Origin: Escherichia coli
GTDB taxonomy: Bacteria; Pseudomonadota; Gammaproteobacteria; Enterobacterales; Enterobacteriaceae
NCBI RefSeq assembly: GCF_003334815.1
Contig: NZ_QOWO01000016.1
Reading direction: 5' to 3' (one strand)
DNA: 64,000 nucleotides
This document shows, in pieces, positions 29,502 to 30,359 of this stretch; position 1 is the stretch's first letter; each line of letters opens with the position of its first letter. A model generated the notes under the pieces. The model worked only from the letters and a program-made list of their open reading frames with translations, did not search any database and was not told where the DNA came from. Position numbers and translations under genes: made by a program.

Positions 29502-29777
29502 ATGACTAAGCTTTATCACCGCATCTCAGCTTTTCTCTCTGGGTGCTGGGCGTTTATCACGTCTATTTCGTTCGCCATCTTTAGTTTCGGTAGCACAGCA
29601 TGCTCGCTTAGTCGGGGTCTGTGGCGTGCTATTTCAGCACTAGCGCCGAAATTTTTACCTGAAAAGGTTGTTTGGCGAATTGTAGAGCGAATGTGTAGTG
29701 AGAGCGTTCGCGAGAAGATTAACGTATTTGGACGTCATCCTCGAAATACAGGCGCATTGTGCAGTTCGTTACTGTAG
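29502..29777 (+). CDS. Phage hypothetical membrane-associated protein
   Basis: 91 aa with a hydrophobic N-terminal half. Confidence 0.3.
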   Translation: MTKLYHRISAFLSGCWAFITSISFAIFSFGSTACSLSRGLWRAISALAPKFLPEKVVWRIVERMCSESVREKINVFGRHPRNTGALCSSLL

Positions 29778-29895
29778 TCATTACAAAGCCCATCTTTGGG
29801 TTTGGTTTGTAATTTCGCTGCTGCAATAATCACCAGAAATATGGCATTGTTATTGGTGGTCATATGTCATACCCATCAATTACAAAGGAGCAGAC

Positions 29896-30147
29896 ATGTC
29901 ATCTACAAAATTAGTTAAAACTATCCTTTTCCATGGAGATAATAAATATGAAGTTTATGCAACCTCCGAGTACGCTGACGTAGATAGAATCATTCATTAC
30001 AAGTTACGCTCATGTAAAAACACAGATGGTTCAGATGGCAAGTCTGAATCTATATGGGTTGTATATAATCCTGCTGTTCAACTACCGGATGATCTGAACT
30101 ACAAAAAAGTTAGCAACATAGCTCCTTATCTTGAAAAGTTACAATAA
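29896..30147 (+). CDS. AT-rich moron protein of unknown function
   Basis: 83 aa preceded by AAAGGAG, followed by hairpins; flanked by direct repeats GTCATTACAAA(A)GCC. Confidence 0.45.
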   Translation: MSSTKLVKTILFHGDNKYEVYATSEYADVDRIIHYKLRSCKNTDGSDGKSESIWVVYNPAVQLPDDLNYKKVSNIAPYLEKLQ

Positions 30148-30359
30148 ACTTCCTTTTCCACATGCTAAAAGCCTCGTATTCGCGGGGCTTTTTATTGTCA
30201 TTACAAAAGCCACTCCCTACAGAGTGGCTTTGATAATGGTTTATACCCTACACGGGATAACTTAACTGATATCCCTTTTAACGGATAAACGGAGCCAACA
30301 ATGGCAGAGAATGTCGGCATTATGGCAGTTAAATTTGGATAAATCGGAGATTAGTACAT

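Follow-up and report, generated by a model that had tools for sequence, protein, structure and literature searches.

Between the lysis and the packaging genes of a prophage in Escherichia coli, a small AT-rich gene appears to be bracketed by short direct repeats, and this raises the question whether such repeats are the scars of an insertion or have a different origin. The gene is an open reading frame (ORF) for 83 amino acids, hereafter ORF83 (29896-30147 on the + strand; protein WP_000099430.1). It lies in a stretch of 64,000 nucleotides (the window), which is 100% identical to the sequence of E. coli 042 (NC_017626.1), a strain whose HK97-like lambdoid prophage has its late operon in this region. 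The original prediction, made from the sequence alone, regarded ORF83 as a moron inserted as a discrete unit and took the repeats as evidence of this insertion. Related phages bear out the unit. The repeats, however, were wrongly read as insertion evidence, since they are arms of two different hairpin types, designated C and A below. We consider it probable that the segment from 29779 to ~30195 is one exchangeable accessory cassette and that the hairpins serve as structures and homology patches in a variable slot of lambdoid phages.

The basic description of the locus holds. ORF83 is present in the list of ORFs of the window and is preceded by a good Shine-Dalgarno site (AAGGAG at 29885-29890, 5 nt upstream of the ATG). 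The G+C content (GC) is 0.35-0.385 over 29800-30299, compared with 0.465-0.47 to the left and 0.525-0.595 to the right. A terminator hairpin with a stem of 11 pairs (30167-30192) and a T-run (30189-30193) follows the gene; at the level of sequence-based prediction it folds with -15.7 kcal/mol (z -4.5). The unit is located, as proposed, between the lysis genes (holin, lysozyme, Rz) and the packaging genes (HNH endonuclease, small terminase TerS, large terminase TerL). Near-identical motifs do flank the ORF, but the left one had been misquoted as TTGTCATTACAAAGCC and actually reads GTAGTCATTACAAAGCC. The core of the repeat is the exact 11-mer GTCATTACAAA at 29777-29787 and 30197-30207, after which GCC follows, preceded by 0 or 1 extra A; aligned without gaps, the copies (29777-29792 and 30197-30212) share 88% identity over 16 nt. 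The 11-mer has two copies in the whole 64 kb, both flanking ORF83. When the flanks were shuffled 5000 times with dinucleotides preserved, 14 shuffles produced an exact repeat of at least 11 nt that bracketed an ORF in the same geometry. The repeat exceeds the chance expectation and is weak evidence when taken alone. What had been missed is an inverted repeat at either place (29779-29813 and 30199-30238), of which the respective copy forms the 5' arm.

The left hairpin (29779-29813, + strand) is a degenerate representative of type C (-11.7 kcal/mol, z -3.1) and marks the left border of the cassette, where the limits of homology lie. The right hairpin (30199-30238, + strand) is an intact type A member with a 17-nt inverted repeat that is 88% complementary (-20.5 kcal/mol, z -5.2). 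It is followed by the conserved leader of a DUF2560 gene (30239-30300, + strand), which carries a GGAG Shine-Dalgarno site and a second stem-loop (GGGATA...TATCCC at 30254-30275). An exact 22-mer of this leader (30254-30275) was used as an anchor and has matches in at least 120 viral contigs. In 126 contexts selected by this anchor, the sequence just 5' of it folds into a stem-loop in almost every case, with at least four types of stem sequence. Type A consists of the 5' arm ATTACAAAAGCCAYTC, the loop CCTACA and the 3' arm GAGTGGCTTTGATAAT, type B of ATTGCAGAGRCCATTC, AAT and GAGTGGTCTCGACAAT, and type C of ATTACAAAGCCYATC, TAC and GGGTGGGCTTGATAAT; type D is rarer than these three. Common to them are an outer stem, (G)CCATTA/TAATGG(C), and a covarying inner stem of 9-11 bp, which are separated by an internal loop of 2x2 nt (CA in the 5' arm, GA in the 3' arm); the terminal loop has 3-6 nt. 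A pattern scan revealed 61 distinct hairpin sequences in 207 copies; because the scan demanded CA and GA, the invariance of these dinucleotides among the 61 hairpins is not independent evidence. The CA/GA loop is, however, also retained in nearly all of the anchor-selected contexts.

Covariation was analysed in a set of 30 distinct sequences that were picked by the downstream anchor alone. RNAalifold predicted 15 pairs, five of them with compensatory double changes. By pair counting, 97.3% of the cells are paired, compared with 30-47% if the partner is slid by one to three columns. Double changes were observed in 39 cells, a count that, like the others, is inflated by relatedness, against 10.8 ± 4.1 in shuffles, and none of 500 shuffles reached 39; the covariation score is 0.399 versus 0.262. 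Mismatches of the G.T kind, compatible with G.U pairing on the + strand, outnumber A.C mismatches by 49 to 12, and this excess favours the + strand. These data show a hairpin family that is structurally conserved, strand-specific and intercistronic. It is found in P22, Sf6, HK97, HK140 and more than 100 viral contigs, in each case on the strand of the late transcript and immediately behind a stop codon or a terminator. Of the features expected from a structured RNA, compensatory pairing and strand specificity are present and membership in a curated family is absent: in Rfam 15, neither the hairpins nor the leader attain the gathering score of any family, and the best matches below threshold are unrelated (E ≥0.3).

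A covariance model made from the hairpin alignment (R1) recovers the right hairpin of the window on the + strand with 60.8 bits (E 2.5e-12) and its mirror on the - strand with 19 bits. The left hairpin scores 9.7 bits on the + strand (E 6), and over the 64-kb window nothing significant was found outside the hairpin site. The copy of the left hairpin in E. coli cM8a is in better condition, with 30.8 bits and a fold of -19.1 kcal/mol (z -7.0), and the left hairpin of the window is a decayed copy of the family. Strong R1 hits are found only on the late-gene strand, in P22, HK97, Sf6, HK140 and Huey, with two each in HK97, Sf6 and HK140. The P22 hairpin (L142:1306-1353, 70 bits) overlaps the start of the annotated orf25. 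In two distant phages (L134 and L137), ORF83 homologues likewise have a strong R1 hit on either side. A full-text literature search with the hairpin strings returned unrelated matches only, and papers on epsilon34, phage L and the evolution of Sf6 leave the element unmentioned; apparently, the hairpin family is undescribed so far.

The original prediction had proposed to look for presence and absence of the unit in related prophages, and this comparison is informative: the unit is lacking in two relatives with the same flanks. In one of them, the viral contig L016, Rz and the small gene ORF91 are followed by a single type C hairpin (CATTACAAAGCCCATCTACGGGTGGGCTTGATAATG) and then by the leader and an intact gene of the DUF2560 family, an arrangement that reads as an empty site. 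In HK140, the same left flank and first hairpin are followed by a filler of 158 bp, a second hairpin with a different stem and the same leader. The window has the same left flank again, a mutated first hairpin, the ORF83 unit, a hairpin of a third stem type and the same leader. Conversely, E. coli cM8a carries the ORF83 unit with 94% identity between BRO-N and KilA-N genes, that is, in unrelated flanks. Homology of the window with cM8a sets in exactly at CATTACAAAGCCC (29779) and extends to the T-run of the terminator (~30195), and the leader of the cassette (29814-29895) is 97-100% conserved in cM8a; the homology of HK140 and L016 with the window stops inside the 3' arm of the left hairpin. 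Because the site is empty in L016, filled differently in HK140 and the unit sits in unrelated flanks in cM8a, the segment from 29779 to ~30195 is a discrete, mobile and horizontally acquired AT-rich unit.

Far from being a universally conserved late gene, the cassette is present in 17 of the 5426 complete E. coli genomes, where 16 copies are 99.7-100% identical; five genomes with a near-identical cassette were inspected and have the same context as 042. The right hairpin together with the following leader is found in 1131 of the same 5426 genomes with 95-100% identity, and also in many P22-like, HK97-like and other lambdoid phages. The right copy of the repeat belongs to the downstream module rather than to the cassette, given the frequency of this combination and the lack of a right hairpin 3' of the cassette in cM8a. 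The right border of the cassette itself is marked by its intrinsic terminator with the subsequent ATT (30167-30196, + strand).

The slot between the lysis and terminase genes has taken up many other sequences. At 71 of 128 loci there are two hairpins within 4 kb 5' of the anchor, and at least ten unrelated fillers of 158-1462 bp lie between paired hairpins. They include the Sf6 gp66 family and several small ORFs with low GC and their own terminators. The largest filler, on the viral contig L026 (1462 bp, GC 0.43), encodes a protein of 246 amino acids with a serine-protease-like GNSGGP motif and also has its own terminator; it shows that the slot accepts large cargo besides small ORFs. About 20 unrelated left flanks meet the 5' edge of the hairpin, roughly half of them with a stop codon 1-3 nt ahead of it, and eight left flanks end in different terminators, each then followed by the same TTTTTATTGCCAT. 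The right flanks form about seven groups. Type C hairpins occur with at least ten left flanks in combination with two to three right flanks, type B hairpins always with the same left flank. One viral contig possesses a hybrid hairpin (CATTCCAAAGCCCATCTACGGGTGATTCCTTACAGAGTGGCTTTGATAATGG), in which the 5' part of type C is joined to the loop and 3' arm of type A, apparently the trace left by two hairpins that underwent a crossover or deletion. The direct repeats at ORF83 are what is expected of any cassette between two members of the hairpin family, because it is this position that creates the appearance of direct repeats.

A side observation concerns the annotation of the same slot in another phage. 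In phage Huey (L141), two genes of the slot (386-886 and 1121-1501) are labelled 'anti-CRISPR protein'. The second of them shares its coordinates with Sf6 gp66 (L002 1121-1501), which lies between the two Sf6 hairpins. A PHROGs search with Sf6 gp66 gave matches only to families of unknown function, and the label in Huey therefore looks unsupported.

In the explanation that we favour, this variable lysis-terminase slot is occupied by a cassette in which a remnant of a hairpin and a short leader precede ORF83 and its intrinsic terminator. The hairpins would act as single-stranded structures of the + strand, most likely in the late mRNA. A role in processing, stability or coupled translation of the neighbouring cistrons is plausible. 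The 3' arm carries TAATG. A start codon inside the stem, 1-3 nt past the stop codon of the upstream gene, looks like a device for translational coupling. Intercistronic processing hairpins for ribonuclease III (RNase III) in phage T7 and mRNA-stabilising stem-loops have about 18-20 bp and a small internal loop. The present family resembles the T7 sites in its intercistronic position, its location on the sense strand of a long phage transcript and a conservation of structure more than of sequence. However, sequence and loop are unrelated to those of the T7 sites, and the likeness, which is one of size and position, is no more than a lead. Because otherwise unrelated cassettes share the hairpins, these would in addition provide short stretches of homology, so that cassettes might be swapped, inserted or deleted there by general recombination or by that of the phages themselves. 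Such an exchange would explain why the ORF83 unit seems to be bracketed by direct repeats.

Several observations weigh against this explanation. The left hairpin alone, with 9.7 bits and E 6, is not recognisable as a member of the family. In cM8a there is no hairpin 3' of the cassette, and therefore a flanking pair of hairpins is not obligatory. Behind the covariation there are only about 4-6 independent stem types, and as DNA hairpins tolerate G.T pairs too, the choice between RNA and single-stranded DNA is unsettled. ORF83 gave no significant match in family, defence-system or fold searches, which makes any function assigned to it conjectural. Finally, recombination at the hairpins is proposed from sequence, and selection could instead hold the junctions there.

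This last point can be extended to a view in which the hairpins do not have any role in recombination. They would be cis-acting RNA elements of the late operon or simply the ends of modules, and selection would determine where junctions survive, as in the mosaicism model of Hendrix. The position of hairpins 1-3 nt past stop codons and exactly at gene borders fits this view, and covariation and G.U bias indicate an RNA function. Junctions away from hairpins exist as well, for instance at the right end of the cassette in cM8a and between the DUF2560 and HNH genes at ~30310. On the other hand, hairpins of the same type are near-identical across otherwise unrelated cassettes, exchange within shared sequence is simpler than many illegitimate events at one and the same nucleotide, and a hybrid hairpin exists. 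We regard a purely selective origin of the junctions as possible, though rather unlikely.

An equally tentative position has to be given to the opposite extreme, in which the hairpins would be an undescribed kind of structured punctuation in the late operon of P22-, Sf6-, HK97- and lambda-like phages that actively sets where cassettes insert, exchange and delete. They might be crossover points for single-strand-annealing recombinases of phages or folded sites for a specific enzyme, and the 3' arm might provide the next cassette with a -35-like hexamer (TTGATA) and a start codon (TAATG). If this was true, the module boundaries of mosaic phage genomes would be explained by concrete sequences. 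'Boundary' or 'linker' sequences have reportedly been regarded as foci of module exchange in lambdoid phages, an idea associated with the names of Susskind and Botstein and, for HK620, of Clark et al. in 2001. Like these, the hairpins are short, conserved, located at the borders of exchangeable segments and common to different phages. The annotated boundary sequence bsq7 inside the Rz gene of Sf6 was considered as a candidate member and rejected, as it has a different sequence and is not a hairpin; it is the only bsq feature in the Sf6 stretch inspected, and the two Sf6 hairpins have no annotation. The coincidence of the hairpins with the borders of many unrelated cassettes makes them a testable case for the old question whether special sequences determine the boundaries of phage modules or whether these result only from selection among random recombinants. 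Occurring in P22, Sf6, HK97 and about one fifth of the complete E. coli genomes, the hairpin family is the more interesting result of this analysis.

Clearly less probable is a view of the hairpins as dedicated sites of recombination or as small mobile palindromes, similar to the attC sites of integrons or to repetitive extragenic palindromic (REP) elements, with a specific enzyme that cuts and joins folded single strands, so that cassettes would move by site-specific instead of homologous recombination. The likeness to such elements lies in a promoter-poor ORF followed by an imperfect palindrome with conserved structure and strand bias, so that the layout of gene plus hairpin recalls integron cassettes. 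Structure is kept while the stem sequence varies, and the CA/GA positions are unpaired, features of the kind recognised by recombinases of folded sites. Many unrelated flanks join exactly at the hairpin edges, and several copies are preceded by GTAG, as in REP elements. In contrast to integrons and to REP elements with their REP-associated tyrosine transposases (RAYTs), however, the hairpins are confined to a single phage slot instead of being dispersed, and the rest of the 64-kb window is free of them. No recombinase, RAYT or integron-type integrase gene was noted in the inspected loci, although this was not a systematic search. The constant left flank of type B and the hybrid C/A hairpin, which looks like an ordinary crossover, also speak against dedicated sites. 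The reading of GTAG as a REP/RAYT signature was rejected, since in the cases seen its TAG is the stop codon of the upstream gene and no linked RAYT gene was seen.

A function of the hairpins in transcription termination, or as palindromic operators to which a DNA-binding dimer attaches, is very improbable. With -17 to -20 kcal/mol they do form stable stem-loops, and the TTGATA of the 3' arm resembles a -35 element that in two homologous loci (L010 and L134) lies 16 nt 5' of a -10-like box. However, instead of a T-run, GATAATGG or TTTCGC follows the hairpins, which are often found directly after a genuine terminator, and the true terminator of the cassette is the stem at 30167-30192. The inner stems show covariation and no fixed sequence, which is not the way in which operators evolve, and the CA/GA loop lacks dyad symmetry.

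Hardly any credit is left for the repeats as a target-site duplication or as att-like scars of a transposition or site-specific insertion. A near-identical motif of 11-16 nt on both sides of a low-GC unit, in a geometry that is rare by chance (14 of 5000 shuffles), is what such an event would leave behind. However, the motif is embedded in a hairpin of ~40 nt that is found at hundreds of loci without ORF83, the two copies come from hairpin types with different stems (C and A), and the cassette in cM8a has no right copy. The empty site contains a whole hairpin and not one short copy of a target. The cassette also lacks a transposase, an integrase and terminal inverted repeats, and its sole ORF of 83 amino acids matches no recombinase family. 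That ORF83 is not a gene and that the repeat is a chance match in an AT-rich spacer can be dismissed: the absence of a known-family match, the empty tblastn search against 50,697 GenBank phage records and the commonness of short two-copy repeats would agree with it, but not the low ratio of nonsynonymous to synonymous substitutions (dN/dS 0.17-0.23), N-terminal two thirds that stay strongly conserved down to 35-62% identity, fixed synteny, a confident structure model and a repeat that belongs to a conserved hairpin family.

The homologues of ORF83 are 35-87% identical to it, and the seven closest share 41 invariant columns, most of which fall into the first two thirds of the protein. The dN/dS values given above were obtained with the distant homologues, and ORF83 is a real gene under purifying selection. 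The family is tiny, with five clusters in 5.8 billion sequences and nine representatives in 1.84 billion; two of these nine (P0011 and P0013) were rejected as spurious because they are long proteins of tandem repeats. So far, all members come from prophages and metagenomic contigs, in agreement with the negative tblastn search in phage records. Wherever the context is available, the homologues are encoded on the late strand, 3' of holin, lysin and spanin genes and 5' of the terminase genes, and this placement holds across phages with differing lysis enzymes and terminases. In at least nine of ten inspected homologues, a G+C-rich stem with a T-run comes right after the stop codon. ORF83 matches phrog_16949 end to end. 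AlphaFold2 models it with a predicted local distance difference test score of 88 as four antiparallel strands and a C-terminal helix, and inspection of the sequence revealed neither an obvious signal peptide nor an obvious membrane segment. The product is thus predicted to be a small soluble cytoplasmic protein with a beta-sheet. It would most likely bind a protein of the host or of a competing phage, and could be a new host- or defence-modulating protein.

With regard to expression, ORF83 is certainly placed for reading by the Q-modified polymerase late in infection, and it would be translated from the Q-antiterminated late transcript. A weak promoter in the leader of the cassette (29814-29895, + strand) may be a second source. 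This leader contains, in addition to the Shine-Dalgarno site, the box TGGCATTGT at 29843-29851. A corresponding TGnCATnnT box, which is similar to an extended -10 element, lies about 45-52 nt 5' of the ATG in eight of ten genes of the ORF83 family, with the same distance as in the window in L009, L010, L012, L133, L134, L135 and L136. In four homologues there is a TTGAYN hexamer 16 nt upstream of the box, and in L010 and L134 this hexamer is the 3' arm of the hairpin itself (cTTGATAatg, with TTGATA or TCGATA as the -35-like part). Other findings count against a promoter: a scan for the sigma-70 consensus detected none upstream of ORF83 (29780-29895), the box in the window has the weak hexamer CATTGT and no -35 element, and across the ORF83 homologues no consistently placed sigma-70 promoter with a good -35 element was found. 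What nevertheless suggests a promoter of its own is the conserved private terminator, which would be useless against a terminator-resistant polymerase; transcription from a weak local promoter was demonstrated for the pid moron of P22 in the same slot (PMC8835761). We judge the chance of a weak local promoter to be about even. Two other readings of the box were rejected, namely a sigma-54 promoter, as the -12 TTGC element of the TGGCAT box is not conserved among the homologues, and an upstream peptide starting at ATGGCAT, as the peptides are not conserved.

The closest concrete relative of the ORF83 cassette is the pid locus of P22. The pid gene is a small ORFan moron; its promoter is weak and eroded, and its transcript is stabilised by a Rho-independent terminator (PMC8835761). 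Located between orf25 and orf80, it is found in the same gap 3' of the lysis genes as the ORF83 slot. P22 has the same hairpin as the window, the 3' arm of which supplies the ATG of orf25, and orf80 is the DUF2560 gene whose leader follows the right hairpin of the window. The layout with a weak promoter-like box and a terminator also appears to be the same. Unlike ORF83, however, pid is encoded on the strand opposite to late transcription, has a 5' untranslated region of 174 nt and an unrelated sequence, and is inserted inside the DUF2560 leader and not between two hairpins.

The cassette is an ordinary moron-like accessory unit in a known hot spot: the slot is already known for morons such as lambda bor and P22 pid, and ORF83 is one more small ORFan. 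The definition of a moron goes back to Juhala and Hendrix (Juhala et al. 2000, Cumby et al. 2012, as quoted in PMC3594210). As in HK97 gp15, lambda bor and lom, ORF83 is an extra gene relative to close relatives, with a deviating GC and a private terminator, between two conserved modules of the late operon. The definition, however, also includes an own promoter and expression from the repressed prophage, and ORF83, being oriented like the late operon, could simply be an ordinary late gene. Three of the five defining features, namely presence and absence, base composition and the predicted terminator, apply. The earlier designation as a moron is thus adequate for a discrete AT-rich accessory unit and unproven in the strict sense, as the promoter scan upstream of the ORF found none.

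On the left, the cassette adjoins ORF91 (29502-29777, + strand), a conserved neighbour that is located outside of the cassette. It encodes a small protein with a hydrophobic N-terminus that matches phrog_34701 over its full length (E 2e-54), and its TAG stop codon ends 1 nt ahead of the left hairpin. ORF91 is kept together with the Rz flank in several phages and has the same 3' end in the cassette-free L016 and HK140. It is annotated as gp68 in HK140 and has no annotation in the RefSeq record of E. coli 042. Further upstream are the genes for the Q antiterminator (26796-27548), the holin (28202-28552), the lysozyme (28556-29032) and Rz with the embedded Rz1 (29029-29466).

On the right, the DUF2560 leader is followed by a remnant of its gene (30301-30342, + strand). 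It has 13 codons (MAENVGIMAVKFG), of which the first three are conserved, whereas the remainder has diverged. The homology with the intact DUF2560 copies (Sf6 gp67, P22 orf80, HK140 and L016) ends near 30310, and this boundary marks a second recombination junction, just 5' of the HNH gene and away from any hairpin. The HNH endonuclease gene (30360-30710, + strand; annotated in RefSeq, phrog_144 with E 1e-46) is the first of the packaging module, and the P27-type TerS gene (30827-31330) and the TerL gene (start at 31327) follow.

The hairpins also call for caution in gene annotation, because mini-ORFs such as P22 orf25 begin inside a conserved structure. In the window, a mini-ORF of nine codons (30236-30265, MVYTLHGIT) begins at an ATG in the 3' arm of the right hairpin and terminates in the following stem-loop, within its loop. 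The annotated orf25 of P22, with 25 codons (L142 1330-1407), starts at the corresponding ATG of the hairpin. Since the peptides differ between contexts, these mini-ORFs are probably not genes.

Two minor observations concern other parts of the window. A second stretch of low GC (0.39-0.405) lies at 27500-28100 between Q and the holin gene, which is the position of the stx genes in Shiga toxin (Stx) phages. An ORF in this gap (27837-28079, + strand) encodes 80 amino acids with many cysteines and paired CxxC motifs; an ORF of the same size is annotated as hypothetical by RefSeq in strain 135, though not in 042. This stretch may represent a further insertion of the moron-like kind. Possible chromosomal flanks of the prophage, which could help to locate its ends, are indicated by a gene for tRNA-Leu (CAG) and by the REP-derived repeat naRNA4/CssrE, which has four copies; these features are found towards the two ends of the window (9290-9376 on the - strand, 9516-9598 and 59292-59571).

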